From contig NIVC01000462.1 in the NCBI GenBank assembly GCA_002269645.1, forward strand, positions 649,516 through 713,515: DNA of 64,000 nt, read 5' to 3'. The notes beneath the pieces are model-generated. The model searched no databases and had not been told where the DNA came from. It saw only the letters and a list, made by a program, of their open reading frames with translations. Origin of the DNA: Macrostomum lignano (lineage: Eukaryota). The position numbers and the translations under genes are program-made. This document shows positions 1-40,799 of the stretch, piece by piece. The stretch's first letter is position 1, and the number at the start of each line of letters is the position of its first letter.

Positions 1-225
1 ACCGCCATATTTCCATGTCATCAGGTTTAGGCAGCGCTTTTTGATGCTTGCAAGTAAAATGCAATTATTTGTCTCTTTTGTGCTTTGTCCAAATGATCTA
101 TTAAAGAAACCAACTCCTATTTTAGATAGTTAAAAAAAATTTGCGTTGCCGTTTCTGACACGTAGAGTTTGCAGATTCACGGCATCTCTTGCTCTGCCTC
201 TCCCGCCCTTTGCTTGAAGCACACA

Positions 226-2735
226 ACTACGTAGGACGCAGAAACTGCAGGGTTTTCAGAATTCTGACGCAAAAAACGCAAATTATACTACTATCTGAAA
301 ATGAAGTAAGTAGTATACAAAAACGCTATCCTAAGCGTGATGTGGCAATATGTAGTTGTAATAATCCATGTGCTCATATATGTACATTAATTCCATGTAC
401 ATTAATCCCTAAATATCTCAAATTGGATATGTACATTAATTCCATGTACATTAATCCATATCCCAAATTGTCTATCCCCAATTCTATATGTACATGTGCA
501 TTAATCTACAGTGTCATCCCCAGCGCGCGCGCGCACCAAAATTACAACTCGAAACCCTACTATATGTACAGTGTACAATCTCATCTACTACTACCAAATG
601 AGTCAACTAATTGTGTAGCCTACAACGTAATGTATATTTCCAATGTACATTTCTCAGACATTTGAATAATACGGGTCGGAGTCTATATGTACATCGATAG
701 CCTCTATACTCGTATCCGCTACATACCCCAAAAATTAGGTATGTACATTTTCACCCTCGGAGAATGTAGGTTTGAATATGCTGATAATTTATTCGAAATC
801 ACTTATAAAATACACATACTTTCATATAGAGGCGGGCCTGTACAAACTCTCGCCAAGCGATGGGGTGGAGGTTGCGTCATCCAAGCCTCTCCCAAGTCTG
901 CCCCCCCCCAAATACAAGACTGTGTTGAAGCAGTGCTTTATATTTCTATTGACAGTGAGTATGATACAAGACGCTTCGTCGCGCTTTAATTACAGTAAAC
1001 CATCCCCTCGAAGCTCCTATACTGAATGCTGAATCACCCTTTAACTCGACCATAGTCAAATTCAACCCTGTTCGAAAACAGCCACCCCTCCGATGTTCAC
1101 CAGACACAGCGCAGACCCCATAACAAATCGAGCTAAATTTTAACACTCGCCCCTGTTCTCTCTGTCCCCCCTTCTAAATGCCAAGGAATTTCGACCCTCT
1201 CTCCATTTTCAGTGTACAGACAGATCTTTCCACAGCACAGACCCTATATTAAACTTCAAAACCCCTCTCTTCTCCGATTACGTCATCCATGCCGCCCCAG
1301 TTAGCAAGAAACCAACTTTTAATGCACACATCAACCCCCGCGAGCAAATCCGAGTCCGCCAACCTCTACCTGCATTGACAAACCCCAGCTGCATTTGTAA
1401 ATGTACACAGCCTATGAATCAGTGTCTCCACCGCATGCAATTCTGATTTACTTGATTCTAAACTTTGTAAATTGTATAAGTCACCCTTGCGTTATACTAG
1501 AAGTAGTGAAGTCCACATATTTAAATACGTGAGGCTATTCAATTCTGCCTCTCCGCCTCCCCTACCTTCTCACTTCAAGCTTTCAGACTTGGTCTTTGAG
1601 ACGGTCGGTTTAATCTGTTAGAAGCAGGAATGAATCATGCACTGACCTCTCCATACAAAGTAAAGTTGGAATTTCAGACAAGAAATTTGGTTATTTTAAA
1701 AGCTAAATGACTAGAAATGCACATTTTTTTCATTAAAATGCAGCTTTTTACAGTTTTTTTACGATTTTAACCTTAAAATGCAGACTTTGTTGATCAAAAT
1801 CAGTAGTTTCATCACTAGAAACCATACTTTCAGCAGCTAATTTGTCCAAATATCGCTTTCAACTTGACCTTAGACTGCTTTTAAGCAGGAATGAACCCCC
1901 CACAAACATCCACAAGCCAGCCCAAAATCATCCAAAGACATGGCTATTGAAGCCTAAATTGCTAGAAATGCGCATTTTTTCATAAGAAAATACAAATTTT
2001 CACAGTTTTTATGCATTTTTACGTTAAAATGCAGACTTTATTGATCAAAATCAGTAGTTTCATCACTAGAAACCATACTTTCAGCAACTAATTTGTCCAA
2101 ATATCGCTTTCAACTTGACCTTAGACAGCTTTTAAGCAGGAATGAACCCCCACAAACATCCACAAGCCACCCAGAATCAACCAAAGACATGGCTATTGAA
2201 GCTTAAATTGCTAGAAATGAGCATTTTTTTCATAAGAAAATACAAATTTTCACAGTTTTTATGCATTTTTACGTTAAAATGCAGACTTTATTGATCAAAA
2301 TCAGTAGTTTCATCACTAGAAACCATACTTTCAGCAACTAATTTGTCCAAATATCGCTTTCAACTTGACCTTAGACAGCTTTTAAGCAGGAATGAACCCC
2401 CACAAACATCCACAAGCCACCCCAGAATCAACCAAAGACATGGCTATTGAAGCTTAAATTGCTAGAAATGAGCATTTTTTCATAAGAAAACACAAATTTT
2501 CACAGTTTTTACGCATTTTTTTCGTTAAAATGCAGACTTTATTGATCAAAATCAGTAATTCATCACTAAAAACCACAATTTTAACACAAAATTATCACAA
2601 ATGCTACTTCTGGAACTCTGAGACAGCTTTGAGCAGGAATTATAATCGCACACGGATTACCCGAGCCAGTCCAATATTCCACTGAAGCCAGGGTTTTTTA
2701 AAGCTGAATTGTTAGAATTGCTCATTCTTTCGTTT
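226..2735 (+). repeat. Left terminal inverted repeat arm
   Basis: Mirror of 5549..8100; ORFs 687..989(+) and 7252..7599(-) give the same peptide. Confidence 0.95.
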
Positions 2736-3100
2736 AATAAATGACAATTTTCACAGTTTTATTATTTTCTAACGTTAAAATGCGAAATGTATTGGTCAAA
2801 CTTAGTAGTTTCATCCCAAAAGCCATAATTTCAACCGCTAATTTGTCCAAATGCTGATTTCAAAGTTGGCAAGAGACAGCTTTCGAGCAGGAATGAGTTA
2901 CACACTGATCTCCATATGCACACCCCGGCCCAAGTTGGAATTCCACCCAAGACATTTTCATTGAAAGCTAAATTACTAGAAATTGCACATTTTCGTTTTA
3001 AAAAGGTCAATTTTCACAGTTTTTACTCTTTTTAACGTTAAAATGCTGACTTTATTGAACAAAATTAATCACTTCATCAGCAGAAACCATAATTTTTACA
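1623..3100 (+). repeat. ~250-bp-unit tandem repeat inside the foldback (6 units; mirrored at ~5549-6660)
   Basis: AGCAGGAAT anchor recurs at ~1623, 1884, 2135, 2385, 2632 and 2886. Confidence 0.9.
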
Positions 3101-5548
3101 ACTTAATGCTGTTTCATCATTCAAATGTATGTATTTGGTACGTGTAATACCCCTCATGAAGTCAGGGAAGGGATTATTCTTGAATATTGGGTTAAAACGT
3201 ACAGTTTGCTATAAACCTAGCTATAATAATTTTAACATATACAGTCGGCGAAGCGGCCCGTTGATTTCGATTGACATTTAAACTGTCCCTCCCAGACCTC
3301 TCTCTCTCTCCTTCTGCACCCACCGAGAAAAGTGACTCATGCGGCAATCAGCTGGACAGGTTTTATTACTGAATTGGCAAAACAGCCAACACCCAATGGT
3401 CATATTAGACTCGTCTTCACAGCACAGACCCATGTAGAACAGAACCACTCGTCCCTGTCTCTCTGACCTTACCATTTCTAACTGTCAAGGAATTCCGACC
3501 CTCCCTCTCCAATTTCAGTGTACAAACAGATATTTTCACAGCACAGACTCATATATTGAGCCTCCTCCAACCAAAACCCTATCTTGATTACGTCATCCAC
3601 CTCCCCCATAGAAGCAGTTAGCAAGAAACAAAATTTTTCGATGCACATATGAACACTGTGAACCATGCAAAATCGCACATCTACGGGTCGATTTTGATTG
3701 ACAATTTAATACCTTTTGTTGATGCTGCTGTGTACAGTAGTCTTATTTCCGAAGCTCCTAGCAGTCATCTTATAGATGTGGTGAATCAGTGTTGTTTTTG
3801 CCAACTTTACATCTTGATTCATCCTCCAAATTCTTCAACTCTGACCATATTCAATAATTTAACCCATGCAAGTAGATTTGCCAATTCGCCAAATTAGCCA
3901 ATACGAATGGGGCCAGAGGACCCACCCAAATCGAGCCCTTGTCTCTCTCAGGCCTCTCTCTCCTACACATACCCCAGAAAAGTGACTCATGAGGCAATCA
4001 GTTTAACAGGTTCAGTATACTGAATTGGCAAAACAGCAAACACCCAATGGTCAATGGACTCGTCTTCGCAGCACAGACCATTTTGAATAAAGCCAAAACA
4101 CACATACACCCCTATTCTCTGACCAAACCTTTCCATTTCTAGTTGTCAACGAAATTCGACCGGCCTCTCTCTCAATCCCAATGTACATTTTGACGAAGCA
4201 AGCAGATCTTTTCACAGCACGGACCCAGCCTCCCCCAACCAAAGCCCTATCTCTGATTACGTCATCTATACATCCTATACTATACATCTATACAAAGACG
4301 GTCTCTGACTGTTTTTACCCTGGTTGCCTCTCTGGTAGCTTGTCTAAGGGTTGTGCGCAATCCGATTGGCTATGCCAATTTCTAAGGGTCCGCCCCGGAG
4401 GGGCTGTGCCCGTTCTAAAAATAAACCCTATCTTTCTTAGGTGTACATTCCAATTATTTGGCCCTCGGCCTTGGTTTAGGGGGGGTGGTGCCCGGAGTGA
4501 GTAGGTTCTCTGGACTGCAGTGTGGCTAGGTCGGGACTGAGCCCCCTGGTCGTACCCGCCCTGCAGGAAAGAATGACCAATTCACAAAGGTGTACGGTAG
4601 ACCCAGTAGCATGCCAGCCCTGAGGCTGAGCACCCGGGCTGCAGGTCGGCAAGCTGCCTGCTTAGGGCTATGGTGCTCCTCCCCACTGCCATTTCTTTTT
4701 TTCTGGGCTGGCATCCCAGCGCGGTTTTATCCCCTGCTTTTATTGGTTTTATCTTAATTAGGCCTTGAGCCAAACCCAATTTCTTGGAGTTATGAGCTCT
4801 GCCCTCGCCCGGTCCATCTTGCCCTGTCCTCGGGTCCATCTCCTGGCTCCTGCTGAAAGGTCCCTGCTTGCGTGTCTCTGGCTCTCATCCTGACAGTGGA
4901 TTGGTGTCCTGGGAAGGATGTTCGTCCCGAACCGGGGACAACCGGCTGAGTCCGGAGTCCTCTTGCCCTGGGTGCCTCTTCTCCCGACCCCTTGGCCTGG
5001 CCCCCAATAATGAGCTGGATAGGCGATGCCCTTGGGTTGGTAGCAATAGAGGTGTTTGCTACGTCCGCCTAGAGTCTCCCCCTCGGATACAAGCCTTCCA
5101 GACTCACTCCAACATAGAGCTGGGTAGCGAAAAGCCTTGAGGCTCGAGACCTACAGCTTATACCTGGTTCTGACTGTTTAGGATCGCTCTTGGTAAATAG
5201 CTGCCCAGACTCTCTCCAATAGTTAGCCCTTTCCAAGACTTCTGGGTTTCCCCGCTCTTGGACGGCTGTTCAGTTAATCCAATTTCTGTTTTTTCGCGCA
5301 CTCCGAGGACCTGTCTGCTGGGGGGTGGCCTGGGTGGACTCGGTCCTAGCACCGTCCCTGATTCCACTGTTGGTTTGGCGGTGTCTTGTACCATAGACTT
5401 GAAGTCCCTCGCCCTTCTCCAACTAAATTGGTTTGGGTATCTCGGGTTCAGTCGTATCTGTTCCCTTGGTAGTGCCCTCTGCGGCAGAGCCCCTCCCAGG
5501 GCTGATCCGCGGGTAGCCCCGTAGCTTCCCACCCCGTTTAACAACAAC

Positions 5549-8100
5549 AAACGAAAGAATGAGCAATTCTAACAATTCAGCTTTAAAAAACCCTGGCTTC
5601 AGTGGAATATTGGACTGGCTCGGGTAATCCGTGTGCGATTATAATTCCTGCTCAAAGCTGTCTCAGAGTTCCAGAAGTAGCATTTGTGATAATTTTGTGT
5701 TAAAATTGTGGTTTTTAGTGATGAATTACTGATTTTGATCAATAAAGTCTGCATTTTAACGAAAAAAATGCGTAAAAACTGTGAAAATTTGTGTTTTCTT
5801 ATGAAAAAATGCTCATTTCTAGCAATTTAAGCTTCAATAGCCATGTCTTTGGTTGATTCTGGGTGGCTTGTGGATGTTTGTGGGGGTTCATTCCTGCTTA
5901 AAAGCTGTCTAAGGTCAAGTTGAAAGCGATATTTGGACAAATTAGTTGCTGAAAGTATGGTTTCTAGTGATGAAACTACTGATTTTGATCAATAAAGTCT
6001 GCATTTTAACGTAAAAATGCATAAAAACTGTGAAAATTTGTATTTTCTTATGAAAAAAATGCTCATTTCTAGCAATTTAAGCTTCAATAGCCATGTCTTT
6101 GGTTGATTCTGGGGTGGCTTGTGGATGTTTGTGGGGGTTCATTCCTGCTTAAAAGCTGTCTAAGGTCAAGTTGAAAGCGATATTTGGACAAATTAGTTGC
6201 TGAAAGTATGGTTTCTAGTGATGAAACTACTGATTTTGATCAATAAAGTCTGCATTTTAACGTAAAAATGCATAAAAACTGTGAAAATTTGTATTTTCTT
6301 ATGAAAAAATGCGCATTTCTAGCAATTTAGGCTTCAATAGCCATGTCTTTGGATGATTTTGGGCTGGCTTGTGGATGTTTGTGGGGGTTCATTCCTGCTT
6401 AAAAGCAGTCTAAGGTCAAGTTGAAAGCGATATTTGGACAAATTAGCTGCTGAAAGTATGGTTTCTAGTGATGAAACTACTGATTTTGATCAACAAAGTC
6501 TGCATTTTAAGGTTAAAATCGTAAAAAAACTGTAAAAAGCTGCATTTTAATGAAAAAAATGTGCATTTCTAGTCATTTAGCTTTTAAAATAACCAAATTT
6601 CTTGTCTGAAATTCCAACTTTACTTTGTATGGAGAGGTCAGTGCATGATTCATTCCTGCTTCTAACAGATTAAACCGACCGTCTCAAAGACCAAGTCTGA
6701 AAGCTTGAAGTGAGAAGGTAGGGGAGGCGGAGAGGCAGAATTGAATAGCCTCACGTATTTAAATATGTGGACTTCACTACTTCTAGTATAACGCAAGGGT
6801 GACTTATACAATTTACAAAGTTTAGAATCAAGTAAATCAGAATTGCATGCGGTGGAGACACTGATTCATAGGCTGTGTACATTTACAAATGCAGCTGGGG
6901 TTTGTCAATGCAGGTAGAGGTTGGCGGACTCGGATTTGCTCGCGGGGGTTGATGTGTGCATTAAAAGTTGGTTTCTTGCTAACTGGGGCGGCATGGATGA
7001 CGTAATCGGAGAAGAGAGGGGTTTTGAAGTTTAATATAGGGTCTGTGCTGTGGAAAGATCTGTCTGTACACTGAAAATGGAGAGAGGGTCGAAATTCCTT
7101 GGCATTTAGAAGGGGGGACAGAGAGAACAGGGGCGAGTGTTAAAATTTAGCTCGATTTGTTATGGGGTCTGCGCTGTGTCTGGTGAACATCGGAGGGGTG
7201 GCTGTTTTCGAACAGGGTTGAATTTGACTATGGTCCGAGTTAAAGGGTGATTCAGCATTCAGTATAGGAGCTTCGAGGGGATGGTTTACTGTAATTAAAG
7301 CGCGACGAAGCGTCTTGTATCATACTCACTGTCAATAGAAATATAAAGCACTGCTTCAACACAGTCTTGTATTTGGGGGGGGGGGCAGACTTGGGAGAGG
7401 CTTGGATGACGCAACCTCCACCCCATCGCTTGGCGAGAGTTTGTACAGGCCCGCCTCTATATGAAAGTATGTGTATTTTATAAGTGATTTCGAATAAATT
7501 ATCAGCATATTCAAACCTACATTCTCCGAGGGTGAAAATGTACCTACCTAATTTTTGGGGTATGTAGCGGATACGAGTATAGAGGCTATCGATGTACATA
7601 TAGACTCCGACCCGTATTATTCAAATCTGTCTGAGAAATGTACATTGGAAATATACATTACGATGTGAGCTATACAATTAGTTGACTCATTTGGTAGTAG
7701 ATGAGATTAGTAATTCTCACCTCTGTGTACATGTAGTATTGTACATGTAATGTTGGGGGTTCGCGCTGGGGATGACACTGTAGATTAATGTAAGTGTACA
7801 TATAGAATTGGGGATAGACAATTTGAGATATGGGTTAATGTACATGGGATTAATGTACATATCCATAGGGATTAATGTACATGGAATTAATGTACATATC
7901 CAATTTGAGATAGATAGGGATTAATGTACATGGAATTAATGTACATATATGAGCACATGGATTATTACGACTACATATTGCCACATCACGCTTAGGATAG
8001 CGTTTTTGTATACTACTTACTTCATTTTCAGATAGTAGTATAATTTGCGTTTTTTGCGTCAGAATTCTGAAAACCCTGCAGTTTCTGCGTCCTACGTAGT
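5549..8100 (-). repeat. Right terminal inverted repeat arm
   Basis: Begins AAACGAAAGAATGAG (reverse complement of 2721-2735) and ends CCTACGTAGT. Confidence 0.95.
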
Positions 8101-9110
8101 CACACATAATGTAAGAATTTTGAAAGGAATTTAGAGAAATTCCAGATAGCAAGCGGAGGGTAGAGCAACACTTCTCATGTCAGCCATCCAGTCTGAACTA
8201 CTTCTCCGTTGCAATAAAAAAGTAGTATTTGATATTTTTGTTTTAATTGTTTTTCTCAAGGAAGGCCGACTGCGCATTCTGTGTTGATTCCATGGCTGCA
8301 GATTCCCCTGGCAACGGGACGAGAGTAGGCCGGCCGGGAGACAACTCGGACGATGCTCGAGAAGGCCCGGACTCCTCAGAGAGGAGAAGAACGTACTGTT
8401 GTCTGGGAAGAGACGAGAACTATTGCGAGGGACAGAGGTTTTGGAAAGGGAAGAGCCGCACCCAACTCAACCAATGCGTTAAAATCCCCACTCCGCCACC
8501 CCTGCGAGGGTAGAGCGGTTTTCCATAGCAACCAGCTGGTCTGCACTCTATCAGGGACTGCGTCCCCAACTCAAAGCATTACAAATGCGTACCGCTGTGA
8601 AGACCGCTGCCCCAGCTGCCTCAGAAAACGGAATTTCGAAGTTGTCATAAATGTAGAAAGCTGCTCAGCTTTTCACTGCGTAAATTATGTCCAAGAGTCG
8701 ATCATTCAGTCGTTGCAATGCTTCTTCGACTTTACAATGCATGGTTACTCGGGTTTTCTTGAGACAGGCGAATTTGCATTGGAGAAGGAGGCAGAAGTTG
8801 CTGATTTAGTCAGGACTCTGTTATGACCTTTGGGAGGCCGGTCTGACTGCAGACTCGGTACAAGAGTTAGCGAGAGAGACTGAAGAAAGTACCGCTTTCT
8901 CTTGAGTCAAAGGGCCCAAAAACCAAAATTTTGTGTGCTTTAAGCGGTTAAGTGTCTGTGCGAAGAGGAATTTTTTCAGGAGGACGACAGAAAGACTCGA
9001 TAGAACAGCAATGCCCACACAAGTACCACATGAAGTACTATTCAGAAGTTGGCTGTATAAGGGACTATAAAAGTGAGCCTTTTCTTTTGAGAGCGACTCT
9101 GTGAATGAGA
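8101..9110 (-). mobile_element. Dispersed repeat of unknown family with a decayed ORF (copy 1, interrupted by the foldback)
   Basis: Homologous to 13300-14500 and 24250-24775. Shared minus-strand peptide F[NK]ALVE[LF][GD]AALPF. Confidence 0.6.
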
Positions 9111-11423: not shown

Positions 11424-12469
11424 CTCTGAAAGCTTTCTAAGTGCTACTTGAAAATCTGAAAGTGTTTTTTGCGAGGAATGGTTGGCCACCTAAAATACTT
11501 GTACACCTTTTCTTTCTTACGCTCGCACTTGCCTTTTACTTGCCTTGAATCTTGCCTGATATTGCCATCAATTTGGTTTATTTCACGAACATCAAACTCC
11601 AAACCATGAGTTGCGTATGCAAAAAATTGATTTGTGTTGTCGAACTCTAAGGCTTTCTTTGGCTTGTCTGAGTCGAGGAGTTCTATAATTAGCAATCTGG
11701 AGTGGAAGCAAGTTTTACCTCATGAGGCCACGCTAGTCTGGCCTCATTTGGTAAAATTGAAAAACTCGCTTCAACTCCAGATTGATAATTATAGAACTCC
11801 TTGGTCTGAGTAAACTGAGTAAGCCTCTGACTCGCTACGTCAGATTGAAATGATTCGTGCAGATGTTATTCCCGTACGCTTAAATATTTAATGTTCAAAA
11901 AGTTCGAAATAACTCGCTTTTAATAAAAGTCTTAACGATTTGGACTCTTGTCATCATTGAAGCTTACTTTTGGGAGTAGGTTGCAATAAAACTTGGAGTA
12001 CACTCGATTTAAACCTATGTAAGACATCAACACACACTTTTTTGGCACTTATTTGATTTTTAATGCATTGATTTTTTCACCATTAACTAAGAACTCAATT
12101 GAAATAAATGATTTTAATAAACGTTTTATTGTAAATCTTCGTTACAAAACCAGGTGCAACTCAATATGCGTACTTTTATTGAAGAGCGGCTCGTAAATTT
12201 TAATGTTACCGTGAAAAAATTCAAACTTGAGAAACTTTAACGCTTTGAGCCTTTGCTATTTCTTAAGAATTTAAGCATTTTAAGCATTTATTAATAAGTA
12301 TAGAGTCATTATAATTGTCATTTTTCTATGAAAGGTAGATGTACACGCACATTTAAGCGGTTTAAGTTTAACTGTTAAACAAGGACACAGCAGTCTATGT
12401 AATGCCTCTAAAAAGTGATTTAATTATTTTTAAAGCCTTTTTTCTTTGTCCAAGTAGCCACATCCTGGT

Positions 12470-13284
12470 CCTGGTCCTGGTTGACGCGCACAGCAGGTGG
12501 TCAGAGGTGCACAAGATGAGCAGCACCGCTGCAACTGCGACAATCAAATGCCTGCGAGAAATCTTCGCTCGTCTTGGCCTACCGAGAACTTTGGTGTCGG
12601 ACAACGAGTCTCAATTCGCTTCAGCCGAGTTCACTGAGTTCGTCAGTTCCAATGGCATCCGACAAATCTTCTCGGTGCCATTCCACCCGGCGACCAACGG
12701 CCAGGCCGAGCGCTTCGTCCAGGTGCTGAAGCGGCAACTGATCAAGTGCGGTCACTCGGACGCGCAACTTCAACGACTGCTGATGGCATATCGCAACACT
12801 CCGCACAGCGTCAGTGGCACCGCGCCGAGTCAGCTGCTCATCGGCCGCCGGCTGCGTAGCTGGCTGGACCTCCTGACACCCTCGTTGACTTCGGCCATGC
12901 AACAGCGACAGCAGCATCAGCTTCAGCAGCAGCGGCCAGCGTGCCAATTCCGGCCTGGAGATCGCGTGCTCTACCGCGATTTCAGCACTACCCGATTCGA
13001 GTTCGAGTACCACCTGACAGATTGATGCTGAAGTTAGGGCGTTATCTAAGGGGGGAGATGTGACATAGTGACACGATGGACTTTCTAATAGTTTGTGCGT
13101 ACTCGTACTGAGTGTTGAGACACTAGCAGTGGCGATATTGTTATTTACCGACTTAGTGAATTCTATTCAACCCCACCTCATGCGCGCGTGAATCTGTCTG
13201 CACCCACCACCTTATTACTAATCAAAATAAATAAAGTCAGCCAAGCTCTAAAGCGAGCACTTTTCTCACTCCTACAAGTCAACA
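12470..13284 (+). mobile_element. Ty3/gypsy integrase fragment + PPT + 3' LTR
   Basis: VDAHSRW..., LVSDNESQF, HPATNGQAERFVQ integrase motifs. Purine tract AAGGGGGGAGA then TGTGAC at 13059. LTR has AATAAA and probably ends CA at ~13284. Confidence 0.85.
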
Positions 13285-13299
13285 CTATTGCTTCAGTTA

Positions 13300-14500
13300 T
13301 CAAAGTTTATCACGCTATCCAAGGAAACAACTCATATTTCAGAAAACTGTGGCGTTCAATTGAAGTTTGCGATGCCGCTGCTGACATTCTGAGCTTGCAG
13401 ATTCGCGGGGTGCCTCTTCCTCTGCCTTCTCCTCTCTTGCTAGAAGTAAGGAATGTAAGAAATCTGAAAGGAATTCTGACAGCTCCACAGCAACCTAGCG
13501 ATAAAAACAGCAAACGAAGAGAAGAGGAAATGGACGCAAGAACGAGCAATGAGACACGTCCTGTGTTAGGCAACCAGTCCAACCTAAAAGAAACCACATA
13601 AAGAAGAATTACCATAGAAACCCCTTGAGACTGATATCAGCCGACTCAAAAAGCTATTAGCTGATAAAATTCCATGCATGAGCGCATGAACTACTCTTCT
13701 CTTGCAATAGATGAGTAGTATGTCATTCTTGTTTCAATTTTTTAGTGCGAGGACGGCGGATTGCGTGTGGCCACAGATACCCCCCTTGCAACGGGACGAG
13801 ATCAGGCCGGCCGGGAGCCAACTTGGTCGACGCTGGAGAAGGCCCCAAACCCCCGGAGACGAGCAGCAGAACGCACTGTTGACGGAGAATTGCCCACGAT
13901 GAGCACAGTGAGGGAAAGAAATCCAGGAAAGGGGAGAGCCGCATCCAACTCAACCAATGCGTTAAACCCCCTACTCCGCCACCTCTGCGGCTTTCCATAG
14001 CAACCATGCGGGCTGCACACCATTAGGGATTGCATCCTTAACTCAAAACATTGCGAAAGCGTACATTTTGTGAGGGCCCTTTCCTCCACCTTAAAGGAGA
14101 GAGATTCTGAGGATACACTGTATTATAAAAGGAAGAATATTATTGGATATGGATTCGTTCGGAGCTGCGTTAATTAAATCGCAGAGTCGAGCATTCAGTC
14201 TTTGCGATGTTTCTTAGACTGTGCAGGGGCTGCTCAGATTTTCTTGAGAGTAGCGAATTTGCATTAGACAAAGGAGGCAGAGGTTGCTGATGCAGTCAGG
14301 ACTCTGTTGAGGGTCCGGTCTGACTGCAGAACCGGTACAAGAGTTAGCGAGCGAAACTGCATGAAGTTTTACAGAGTGCTTAAGCGGTTAAGTGTCTAAG
14401 CGAAGATGAATTTTTCAGAAGTACCTGAGGAAGCTCAGCAAGCAATACCCACAGAAGTACCTGATGGAGCAGCAACGCCCTCAGAATTGCCAACGGAATC
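13300..14500 (-). mobile_element. Dispersed repeat of unknown family (copy 2; contains the empty site of the foldback insertion)
   Basis: Aligns to 160-225 joined to 8107-9100, and to 24250-24775. Confidence 0.6.
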
Positions 14501-25948: not shown

Positions 25949-26351
25949 CTAAACCATCCTTAGACTTAAAATAATTTCCTTGTAGCTCATTCTGGTTTTC
26001 GTCATCGCATATAAAAAAGTCATGCACAGCTCTCCACAGGTGTCACTGTTAAGATCTTGAAGTATAAAGTCTGAGCGGTAAATTTTTGCCCTTTAAAGTA
26101 ATTTCTCAATTCTTCAGGTGGGGCTGTTCCATAGCTATCAAAGTAGTATTATGTATGCTTGCGATCAGGATCAATCAACCAACAGACCCAATGAGAACCT
26201 GGTTTGTCAAAAGTGTCAAAGTTCATGATACCGCATTCCTTTTTTATGGTATTGATTGATTTTGGAAGCGTATCTCTCATAAAGACCCCTCGGAAGCTTG
26301 GAATATCTCAAATTCATTAGCTAAATCTTGAAGAAAAGTATACGTTGTCAT
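25949..26351 (-). pseudogene. Maverick/Polinton adenain-like cysteine protease, frameshifted
   Basis: IPSFRGVFMRDTLP...ECGIMNFD...PGSHWVCW...YYFDSYG..PPEEL...QDLNSDTCGELC (H/D/Q/C catalytic motifs). Confidence 0.85.
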
Positions 26352-26369
26352 TTTTAGATTTTATTAAAT

Positions 26370-27110
26370 AAAAACCTTTTTCTCGCCACCTCCAATGACC
26401 AAAGGGTAGACTTTCAATGTTGCCATCTAAGACAAATCGTTTGTTGTCTGCACCTGAAAGACCAATCTTCTTTCTTTGAATTGTATAAACCACGAGTACA
26501 TGGTCTTCTGACTGCAGTTTGGAGAATTTTGCCAGGCCAGGTCTCTATATTCGACTTCTTTTAACTCATTTTGAACTACATGCTTGGGAATACCTTTCGA
26601 TCTTTTAATAGGTTCTGAGTCCTCACATTTTATAAAGTAGGACTTTGCCCTCAGACCGATGAATTCGCTGATGATGTCCCCAGCCTTTTCATCTTTCATT
26701 TTCCCTAGGATTTTTTTATTTTGGGTGGAAAGTCAGAGAAGTAGTTATGCAGTTCTGTTGGGATCTCTACATCCACCTCATAAATTGCAGGTGCTGAGAA
26801 GTCCCATTCAATTTTTTCAAGCCACCTGAAATTTCCAACGGGTAACTCCTGATTCATTGCCCAACCATGGAGATTATTAGCATCTAGGTAGCTAATATAA
26901 TTTAAGGGTTGTTCCTTATTATAATCTTCAATGTAGGGGTTATTCGCTTTAGCATGCCTATGGAGGACACAGACAGAGATGCCCCTCTTTTCGAACTTTC
27001 GACAAAATTGTACATATCTATATCCGTTAAGAGTTCAATGTACCAATCTGTATCTTGATCCCATTTCATTTTCAACAATGATTCCCAGCTAGTGACAGGC
27101 AAAGACACAA
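26370..27110 (-). pseudogene. Maverick/Polinton protein-primed DNA polymerase B fragment
   Basis: ELLTDIDMYNFVE..KRG, YLDANNLHGWAM...LP, GKMKDE..G.II.EFIGLRAKSY, DNKRFVLDG...LPFGH. Internal deletion at ~26720. Confidence 0.9.
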
Positions 27111-27670
27111 AATGCGCAGGGAAGAAGTTTATCCAAGAAGTTTAACCAAGAAGTTTAGCATTATGAGCAATTGTAATAACCATCCTGAGAAGCTTTGCTT
27201 AGTGTAGAATTCTGACACTGTCCATCCGTAAACTAAACCATTGCTGATCGAGACGGGAGTCAGATCCTCTTCCTATGAGACACTGCACAAACGACTGCCA
27301 CCCAATAGCCGTGGCTTCCCCAAGCGTTGATTCCCAAAGCAGCTAGCGGGAAAATGAAAGCCCCATCAGTCAGAAACAATAGCAGCTGAGACTGGGGTGG
27401 GTGGTGGGAGCCTGGGTCATGGCTTAGAAGAGTTCTCTTTCTCTCTGTGGCTAAGAGCCGCCCCTGAGTCAGTCTAGTAGCAAAATCCCCTCCCCTAGTT
27501 GATCATTGCCATTGCTTCCATCCCCGAACAGCCACCCCTGCCGGCGCCCCAACCCCCAGGTTCTCAATCTGCATCCGCGCCGCTCCCGGGATTCTGGGCC
27601 ACCGACGCAGGTTTCAACTCCGCTTCATTGTCGCCTAATTGCCACAGGAATCGCTGAATACGCTGCCAAA

Positions 27671-38430: not shown

Positions 38431-40799
38431 TGTGGTGAGCGAGAGACAAGCCAGTCAGGTTTAGTCCAACAAACAAAAAAAATTCTAACCCTCACCCAAA
38501 GGGTGGAGCTATTCTTATATTTACTCGAGAACGCATGTACATATACAAACAGAGCGCGCATGTACATCGGATGCCTTGACCCCCAAACACCGACTAGCAA
38601 AACAAACCAGTGAGTATACTCACTTTACAACATTCACCCTCCTCCTTAACAGTCACTAATTCCCTTCACAGCTGGCAATCAATGCGTCACGACCTGGCCG
38701 TACCACAACGGTGGTGCCCGCAGTCGCGCACTGCGCCGCAGCTCCGCGTCGGCCTCAACGGTCTCCGGCGGCGGGTCCGTCGGCCTTCTGGCGCTGCCGG
38801 CTCTGCAGCCACTGGCGGCTGTGGCGGCATTGCCGTTGCCGAAGTCGTGCTGGCACCCTCGGGCTCCGCATGAGGCATACAGAGGCTGGTGTGCCACCTT
38901 GAGCCGTCCTCTAACCTGACGATCGTCGGGCTGATGATGTCGTTGACCCGTAGAGGTGGTGACACGTGGCTCTGCAGCTTGCCTCGCATCCGCGGAGATC
39001 GCACTCGCACCAGGTCGCCGCACCCTAATTGAGGCGGTCGGGTTCTTTTGAGCCACTTGAACTTCTTTTGAACCGAATCCCTTAGGCTGAGCGGCACTCT
39101 GCGCAACGGTTGAGCAGTCGGTTGCACCGCGGGGTTGACTCGCGGCCTGTGCTGAAATCCTTTGATGTGTCCGAGTCCCTGAGTCAACTGGTCGAACCGG
39201 CCTGGGATCCAGTCAGGCAGGGCTCTGGTGCCGACTGTCTGCACTCGCTCACCGTCTGCAGTGACGATCCGCAGTCCCAGCTGATCCATGAGGTCGCACC
39301 CCAGGATGTCAGATCCGGTATTGACCACGCTAAGGTTGACGTAAGGCACTACTTTGTCCTTGAGCTGCACCGAGGTCAGGATGTCACCAAGCACGCCGAT
39401 CTTGCTGCCGTTGAAAGCGACCAGCTTCCGTGATGACGCCTGCAGGGGCACGTTGGAAAAAGTCTGTTGTACGTCGTCTTGGTGATGATGGAGACTCGCG
39501 AACCGGAGTCAACGAGCAGCTTGACAGGCCTCCCGTTTAGCAGCACTTCGCAGTGCTTGCTTGCTGCCGCAGCTGTCGACACAGTGCAGATGGAGTACTC
39601 ATCCTGAAGCTGTCGCACTCGGTTGCCGCTCCTGCAGACTCTGGCGAAGTGCCCGCACTTGCCGCAGGACTTGCACTTCTGCCCCTTTGCTGGGCAAGTC
39701 TGTCCACCGAAATGCGCCGCTGAGCCACAGTAGCCGCAGCTCCGGCCGTTGGTTGTCGGCTTCAGTGCCTCGTGCTGTCTTGCCGCCGCTCCACTTTTCT
39801 TGGCCTTGCTGATCTGCTGGACTCCCCACGAGCTGCTTGGGTCTGTGTGGCTGCCTCCCTTGATGGCCTGGGCCTCCAGCAGTCCAGTTTCCAGTCGCTC
39901 CGCCAACTGCACAGCTGTCGCCAAGGTCAGCTCCGGCTCCATAAGCAGTCGCTCCCTGATGTGGTTGCTGAGCACTTTCTCGACGAGCTGGTCACGCAGC
40001 ATCTCCTCCTGGAAGGTCTTGAAGTCGCAGTTCGAAGCCAGGTTTCGCAGCGCGGCAACGAAGTCGCTGATCTTTTCGCCCGGTCGCTGAGCTCTCTGTC
40101 GGAATCTGTGCCTCTCAGAAACTGCGTTGACCTTGGGTCCGAAGTGCGTGTCCAGGAGCTTCAGCGTGTCATTAACTGTTGATGGCGGTTGCTCTCCTTC
40201 CTCCTGATTGCTGCTGGCTTGTAGAGACATGTAGATGTTTTGTCCCTCTGCACCCAAACAGTGGATGAGCAACGCTTGTTTTCTTTGCTCCGGCAGATCG
40301 ATGGCTCCCGATGCTAGCAGGTAGTTGCTGAACATTGCTTTCCATCGGTTCCATTCAATCAGCGGTGCTCCAGCGGCTGGCAGAAACGGCTGCGGTGGCG
40401 AAATGTTGACACTCATTCTGTTGGCTGTATCTCTGCTTGACTGTTGGGCTGCTGCTTGTTGAGACCCTCTCTGTGGGTCGCCCATTGCACTTGCATTTGC
40501 ACCTTCTGTGCTGCTCATGACTTGGCAGATTTTAGAGTTCGCACTTGTGCTGAATCACGCTGGCCCAAATCAATTGATTTCTCCGCGCGACGCCAAAATG
40601 TGGTGAGCGAGAGACAAGCCAGTCAGGTTTAGTCCAACAAACAAAAAAATTCTAACCCTCACCCAAAGGGTGGAGCTATTCTTATATTTACTCGAGAACG
40701 CATGTACATATACAAACAGAGCGCGCATGTACATCGGATGCCTTGACCCCCAAACACCGACTAGCAAAACAAACCAGTGAGTAAACTCACTTTACAACA
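38431..40799 (-). mobile_element. Complete-ended, internally deleted Ty3/gypsy LTR retrotransposon (2.37 kb; gag + protease only)
   Basis: LTRs 38431-38632 and 40599-40799 (TG..CA; 1 substitution + 1 indel). 5-bp TSD TATAG. PBS TGGCGTCGCGCGG; PPT TTAAGGAGGAGGGTGAA. Gag with CCHC knuckle; LLVDSGS protease. Confidence 0.95.
39376..40518 (-). CDS. Gag (zinc knuckle) + aspartic protease of the LTR element; continues after a 1-nt shift into 39451-38687
   Basis: CGYCG...H....C and CKSCGKCGHFARVC knuckles; VKLLVDSGSRVSII. Confidence 0.85.
   Translation of the reverse strand: MSSTEGANASAMGDPQRGSQQAAAQQSSRDTANRMSVNISPPQPFLPAAGAPLIEWNRWKAMFSNYLLASGAIDLPEQRKQALLIHCLGAEGQNIYMSLQASSNQEEGEQPPSTVNDTLKLLDTHFGPKVNAVSERHRFRQRAQRPGEKISDFVAALRNLASNCDFKTFQEEMLRDQLVEKVLSNHIRERLLMEPELTLATAVQLAERLETGLLEAQAIKGGSHTDPSSSWGVQQISKAKKSGAAARQHEALKPTTNGRSCGYCGSAAHFGGQTCPAKGQKCKSCGKCGHFARVCRSGNRVRQLQDEYSICTVSTAAAASKHCEVLLNGRPVKLLVDSGSRVSIITKTTYNRLFPTCPCRRHHGSWSLSTAARSACLVTS

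Follow-up and report, generated by a model that had tools for sequence, protein, structure and literature searches.

A centre-deleted palindrome in Macrostomum lignano and a probable two-part Maverick with the same ends

Intact Mavericks (i.e. Polintons) are 12.7–24.6 kb long, intronless and carry both modules in one piece, according to the available text of a vertebrate study (PMC8097293) and a nematode survey (10.1101/2023.08.22.554363), and a 5'-AC end motif is described for Monopterus albus (section 7 of PMC8097293). The nematode survey and a second one (10.1101/2024.01.15.575659), in the portions at hand, required a span of 20 kb to include either a protein-primed polymerase (pPolB) together with an integrase or else a set of five core genes, so that split elements would be missed. 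The second survey describes as remnants the partial Polintons of C. elegans, in which a pPolB lies near a terminal inverted repeat (TIR) without an integrase at 10 loci. The accessible parts of papers on Bidnaviridae (PMC4061559) and the Drosophila Vesanto virus (PMC8363768) report linear genomes in several segments, with inverted termini that are related and a pPolB derived from Polintons; these viruses are ssDNA, and the bidnavirus capsid is parvovirus-like, with no integrase mentioned in the same part of PMC4061559. Polinton-like viruses and Tlr1 possess a capsid module (joined by an rve integrase in the case of Tlr1) with no canonical pPolB in the sections consulted of PMC11071308, and the snap-back defective genomes of AAV are palindromic molecules built from a single helper-genome end (PMC8235507, in excerpt). 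No description of a split Maverick was found in the PMC Creative-Commons papers and bioRxiv, including the available text of 10.64898/2026.10.13.758929, PMC3014272 and PMC8502044 (subscription papers and Repbase may hold entries), and no Maverick study in Macrostomum lignano was found in these two collections.

The stretch analysed here (the window) comprises 64,000 nt of M. lignano contig NIVC01000462.1. It contains an element at 226–8100 (ACTACGTAGG...CCTACGTAGT) that is directly adjoined at both ends by CACACA and that is, with little doubt, a satellite of a larger group with ACTAC...GTAGT ends (the ACTAC system). This system consists of gene-free palindromic satellites, elements encoding a pPolB (P) and elements encoding capsid proteins and an integrase (C). 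In common with Mavericks, it has a 6-bp target-site duplication, TIRs, pPolB, rve integrase, ATPase, protease and major and (probable) minor capsid proteins; unlike Mavericks, its modules reside on separate 9–11-kb elements (8.8–11.9 kb), its pPolB gene has spliceosomal introns and its satellites are whole palindromes. It differs from the Bidnaviridae by a capsid modelled as double jelly-roll, an integrase and the integration of all pieces. Polinton-like viruses and Tlr1, in the text available, have another replicase in cis, whereas we recognised none in C, for which there is a matching pPolB element; likewise, the C. elegans loci are presented as remnants, whereas P and C are a complementary pair of complete elements. 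We consider it probable (roughly 0.8) that P and C together function as a single Maverick in two parts, accompanied by hairpin satellites.

Structure of the window element

The earlier note described the arms at 226–2735 and 5549–8100 as reverse complements between exact CACACA duplications, and this was borne out by the sequence and by a global alignment of 2477 matches and 21 mismatches plus indels (Table 1). Nearly all of the differences between the arms fell into one patch (456–660 versus 7629–7870), with near identity elsewhere, as if the two ends had been derived from different molecules. No ORF of >168 aa overlapped the element. A discrete insertion with an empty site in the window had also been claimed; the flanks were indeed colinear with a paralogue lacking the insertion (left flank 137–203 versus 13363–13432, 77%; right flank 8108–8131 versus 13452–13475, 92%), but this paralogue is diverged; it supports a discrete insertion and does not by itself show the 6-bp target.

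Table 1. Positions of features in and around the window element
Feature	Position	Strand	Remarks
Left target-site duplication, CACACA (6 bp)	220–225		
Left terminus, invariant ACTACGTA plus variable positions 9–25	226–255	+	End type also in P elements and C elements of system A (P-A, C-A)
Left arm of palindromic satellite	226–4275	+	97–99% to L034, L113, L115 and L046 over at least 1947–4275
Block 73% identical to non-coding end of pPolB element	910–2091		L035 7725–8880
250-bp tandem array, 3.5 copies	1700–2575	+	Mirrored at 5709–6583
18-nt filler at left breakpoint	4276–4293		Similar to neighbouring arm sequence
1.26-kb (1257-bp) dispersed repeat, unrelated, in place of palindrome centre	4294–5550		Identical boundaries at five other loci
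Truncated right arm, mirror of 226–2735	5549–8100	-	2-nt overlap with inserted repeat at 5549–5550
Right terminus, first 30 nt identical to left terminus	8071–8100	-	
Right target-site duplication, CACACA	8101–8106		
Diverged paralogue of flanks without insertion	13363–13475	+	
Decayed protease and pPolB fragments of AG-ended Maverick M2	25952–27141	-	Outside ACTAC system

The reading of the 2.5-kb arms as TIRs did not hold. In family sequence the left arm continues to 4275, indicating that 2.5 kb is not a natural TIR length, and the arms are the remnant of palindrome arms of ~4.7 kb. A sister copy 118 kb upstream, which shares the left flank (98.5% over 3.1 kb), had kept an ordinary, longer arm at the breakpoint, and contigs of four runs continued as ordinary arm at 4273, indicating that the window copy is a secondary deletion. 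None of the window-specific inner junctions were present among the short-read contig pieces listed. The centre of the palindrome may have broken, been end-joined and been patched with the unrelated repeat, and the 18-nt filler would be a product of this end-joining. In all probability, the window element derives from a gene-free palindrome by loss of its centre, and the ends and 6-bp duplications of that palindrome are common to two separate coding elements.

Copies of the 1.26-kb repeat were 80–94% identical (best 40 of 696 candidates). This repeat (window 4294–5550; L220–L224) has fixed ends, one of them (CAA)n, lacks an obvious target duplication and is unclassified; it had very deep coverage in probable RNA runs, and joints between its end and its start in DNA run X2 point to circular or tandem copies. 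The remainder of the window (9240–63994) holds dense minisatellite arrays (Tandem Repeats Finder gave 52 rows for the window), and two segments (12393–12851 and 38855–39040) are similar to an rve/H2C2 integrase ORF and its neighbouring ORF at another locus and are probably LTR-retrotransposon remnants.

Family ends and palindromic satellites

The set of P, C and palindrome was present twice, i.e. as system A (ACTACGTA ends) and system B (ACTACTA ends), and the 5'-AG terminal motif of Mavericks was absent from both. The earlier note had advised that copies with the same termini be examined for 6-bp duplications, and these were exact in 70 of the 75 elements in which both ends were recognised, out of 81 regions tested (the other six lacked paired ends and are not counted); some of the 75 are repeats of one insertion (L040–L042; L043/L118). 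The five exceptions comprised three loci with mirror-image flanks (L032, L033 and C996), a single mismatch (L117) and C1711, and two duplications reached 9–10 bp due to their location in microsatellites. A search with the first 135 bp of the element gave 42 matches (best 40 of 217 candidates scored). Genome-wide, 123 matches to ACTACGTA-type and 226 to ACTACTA-type terminal patterns were obtained, the latter including a few C-A ends with ACT in front, as compared to none for reversed controls; positions were recorded for the first 100 of each type.

Positions 1–7 or 1–8 of the terminus were invariant within a system and positions 9–25 were variable, with the first 30 nt being the same at both ends in 60/75 elements. 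Positions 9–25 (234–250 in the window, and in all ACTAC ends) had the appearance of a modular mix-and-match between copies, usually the same at both ends of one copy. Terminal 16-mers were common to classes within A (5, 5 and 2) and within B (4, 3 and 5) and in none of nine cross-system comparisons. The terminus at 226–255 is predicted to function as a replication origin and integrase end.

Full-length satellites were whole palindromes of 9.2–9.9 kb in system A and 8.7–9.4 kb in system B (typically ~9.5 kb), consisting of ~4.7-kb arms that were about 99% identical to each other and a fixed centre (i.e. a 48-nt loop in A and 75–77 nt in B) with exact matches at 25 and 49 places. Both centres fold into an imperfect hairpin with the tip C-GCA-G on one strand, presumably an unusually stable DNA loop. 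The satellites were 72–73% identical to the P end over 1.2 kb. Three loci (L040–L042) were fold-backs of the pPolB-element end and resemble snap-back genomes; the main satellites differ from these in being old fixed lineages with a conserved centre, and in being integrated. In a 5.2-kb copy (L049), a single arm and the hairpin were followed by only about 80 bp from the other end, with the 6-bp duplication still present, and tandem 9.86-kb units, each with one satellite arm and the hairpin tip, were observed at L225–L227 (G000:C362).

Copies with deletions and nested insertions were frequent. The nested insertions (L044–L046, L116 and L121–L127) include a THAP/P-type transposase and an ORF containing CIDE-N. 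Large ORFs of L044–L046 (the copies covered by the Pfam scan), L101 and L121–L127 were considered as partner genes and rejected as the ORFs differ between copies; this variation, including that of the P-type transposase of L046, indicates nested insertions. The only recurring coding partners between ACTAC ends were Maverick genes.

Foldback elements have modular long arms with tandem repeats, and in foldback cut-and-paste transposons a partner carries the transposase between identical ends and the duplication is 7–10 bp. An unrelated transposon of this kind is extremely improbable here, with a 6-bp duplication, Maverick genes as partners and a transposase and other large ORFs that change from copy to copy. 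The same low probability is given to a fold-back artefact of assembly. Such artefacts are known in long reads (available text of PMC12870357), and the mirror-image flanks at three of the 75 loci indicate that fold-back artefacts or rearrangements occur in this assembly; most loci, however, had distinct flanks with 6-bp duplications, and an asymmetric centre fixed at 25 and 49 places together with ends common to Maverick-gene elements argue against both explanations.

The palindrome could also be a required third segment (e.g. a source of structured RNA) rather than a parasite. A palindrome is retained in both systems, its size class is the same in each and its hairpin tip is conserved, and contigs of probable RNA runs cover the satellite arm. 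This reading is nevertheless unlikely, as no ORF of >106 aa was found in the A arm, A and B arms had no DNA similarity and copies with deletions or nested insertions are frequent; the RNA cover also extended over the polymerase introns, so that DNA may be present in those runs. Parasitic satellites are the preferred reading.

Polymerase and capsid/integrase elements

The window element is not a canonical Maverick and works like a non-autonomous one. Its description in the earlier note as a protein-free element of the Maverick type with atypical 5'-ACTAC ends was upheld by same-ended relatives with 6-bp duplications that carry either pPolB or integrase and capsid genes. The coding genes that were sought between such termini (i.e. 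pPolB, integrase, ATPase and capsid) were all found, but divided over two separate elements.

Two loci (L035 and L050) combined the ends of the window element with a PF03175 protein-primed polymerase. A genome search with this pPolB, in which all 145 candidates were scored, gave 140 matches in two main groups of about 80–100% and 55–73% identity. Fourteen complete P copies of 8756–10530 bp were obtained, of which six belonged to system A (9486–9698 bp) and eight to system B (8756–10530 bp). The nearest proteins in UniRef are labelled Macrostomum lignano, and remoter relatives at 28–36% include proteins of Nematostella and Apostichopus. The pPolB gene contains four GT-AG introns of 74–81 nt that were spliced out in runs X11 and/or X13 (from one study, and guessed to be RNA), with no splice joints in runs X2 and X7; three of the introns lie within polymerase motifs, at positions common to systems A and B. 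C proteins had no match in the seven P copies tested, nor did the integrase query within the P copies examined. P elements of system B contained two extra ORFs opposite to pPolB (L072 582–1115 and 1162–2241) with no Pfam match, the first of which appears to us to resemble PC4. An intronless pPolB of the same class, at 30% identity, was observed at G000:C234.

The integrase of a canonical Maverick, used as a query, matched three ACTACGTA-ended loci at 30%. These C elements encode, on one strand, an ATPase, a protease, a major capsid protein, a protein that we take to be PW-like, a probable minor capsid protein (from its position and weak similarity), an rve integrase and four further ORFs. The integrase scored above the PF00665 cut-off. 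A model of the capsid protein (pLDDT 71, pTM 0.76) matched the capsids of PBCV-1, iridovirus and virophages (Sputnik and mavirus) with E-values of 1e-15 to 1e-12, consistent with a predicted double jelly-roll. Adenain was the best match for the protease (with a profile including M2 and M3 sequences), which is thus adenain-like. The ATPase has Walker A/B motifs and aligned with A32-type proteins; it scored below the PF04665 threshold, and a PDB search with its profile gave only generic P-loop matches. A genome profile search with PF04665 gave no matches although A32 genes are present, i.e. a false negative.

Complete C elements were 10.1–11.9 kb, those of system B (C-B) having ACTACTA ends, and no pPolB match was found in the 12 C-A and seven C-B regions carrying the C gene set. 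The integrase search gave 57 rows at 67–100% and then about 93 at 40–44% (best 150 of 1640 candidates). C-A and C-B capsids grouped with three environmental proteins at 80–81%, and C-A plus C-B was the sole resolved grouping in the integrase tree. No relative of the capsid was detected in IMG/VR and one, at 29% on a 7-kb contig, in a metagenome search. A Fic-domain gene was observed in C-B (L198 2385–3185) and not among the C-A ORFs scanned.

Canonical Mavericks were also present as single pieces with 6-bp duplications, i.e. M1 (AGTAGTAGT ends, about 18–19 kb) and M2 (AGTAGAA ends, 15–20 kb), together with the single-piece M3, which has its own pPolB (three integrase loci at 40–44%, two with an AGTAGT left end). 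The decayed Maverick noted 18 kb from the window element is real and matches M2, but belongs to this other, AG-ended family and is not a parent of the ACTAC family. M2 proteins matched at 26 kb in the window and the pPolB query did not, and M2-family proteins had no tblastn match in P elements and satellites. PF21738 matches were considered as ACTAC elements and rejected, those examined being canonical M1/M2. M1 has a 99-nt hairpin per terminus (L164 6366–6464; L166 7256–7355), a PLA2-integrase fusion and a D5-type primase-helicase, and at G000:C273 (L147–L148 and L167) an M2 is apparently nested inside an M1. P and C could be independent hitch-hikers on these AG-ended elements and not on each other, as M1–M3 carry integrase and capsid genes, M2 and M3 also pPolB, and the capsid tree placed the C capsid in a broad clade with M3. 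Against this, M1–M3 ends are AGTAG versus ACTAC, the M2/M-type polymerases had no significant similarity to the P enzyme, the P and C gene sets are exactly complementary and the variable terminal sequences are common within each system, making such hitch-hiking very unlikely.

The separation of P from C was consistent. None of the 53 C-type integrase places lay within 40 kb of the 106 pPolB places (fragments collapsed), and the two were on the same contig in three cases only, 44.5, 169 and 467 kb apart; capsid matches at ≥70% (best 150 of 280 candidates, by eye) provided no closer pairing with pPolB. No TIR-bounded ACTAC element contained both pPolB and integrase among the best 150 of 1640 integrase, the best 150 of 280 capsid and all 145 pPolB candidates, and a rare unsplit copy may exist among lower-scoring candidates or beyond the first 100 termini of each type. 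Additional loci that were checked held no unsplit ACTAC element; these were single-piece Mavericks, small fragments, a decayed C-like remnant (C621) and the pPolB of C234. P and C had little DNA in common past the first ~30 nt, with one 200-bp block in system A. Their TIRs were about 240–1350 bp in most copies and 2.6 kb in one, and those of the satellites are far longer than the 100–1500 bp of Mavericks. Genes were complementary across separate elements with a common terminal signal, as in multipartite viruses, and P and C probably complement each other.

Comparison of A with B gave pS values of 0.61–0.77 in every P and C gene tested and pN values of 0.04–0.41 overall (0.04–0.14 for integrase, major capsid, ATPase and protease; 0.20–0.35 for pPolB), indicating that both halves have been under purifying selection and diverged long ago; as silent sites are saturated, co-divergence of P and C between A and B is only qualitative. 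The split looks old given the two sets, the near-saturated silent sites, the purifying selection and the common intron positions.

Deletion derivatives are common in transposons, and P, C and the palindromes could be such derivatives of a single-piece ACTAC Maverick that is absent from the assembly or among unscored candidates; the integrase and capsid searches covered the best 150 of 1640 and of 280, and fold-back derivatives of the P end exist (L040–L042). This origin would, however, call for two absent parents, one per system, that had come apart at an identical point; the TIR interiors of P and C differ, their sizes are uniform and many open frames persist in both, and all 145 pPolB candidates were scored with none near a C-type integrase. 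Derivation by deletion is accordingly judged distinctly unlikely, and a bipartite Maverick is preferred.

Proposed propagation and significance

Kapitonov and Jurka are said to have put forward a protein-primed replication model for Polintons in 2006. In the mechanism proposed here, the pPolB of P would prime on elements of every class, at their ACTAC ends, and the integrase of C would insert all three, resulting in 6-bp duplications. A satellite strand, once displaced, would fold back on itself as a hairpin duplex of 4.7 kb and so regenerate the origin at once, an advantage for a parasite. The capsid proteins of C may package all three classes, and a packaging limit of this kind would explain their 9–11-kb size.

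Separate packaging into particles is put forward tentatively, with slightly less than even confidence. Equally tentative is the wider reading of the ACTAC system as an animal DNA virus of the double-jelly-roll kind that is segmented and integrates. In this reading, polymerase and capsid/integrase segments of about 10 kb each would be packaged separately, accompanied by size-matched hairpin satellites, and the virus would have persisted for long enough to divide into two lineages whose origin sequences are mutually exclusive. Whether a Maverick is a virus or a transposon is an open debate, and size-matched halves that are both intact are hard to explain without packaging. If true, this would be genome segmentation in a dsDNA capsid lineage, of which no description was found, and would provide a model for the origin of segmented relatives such as the bidnaviruses.
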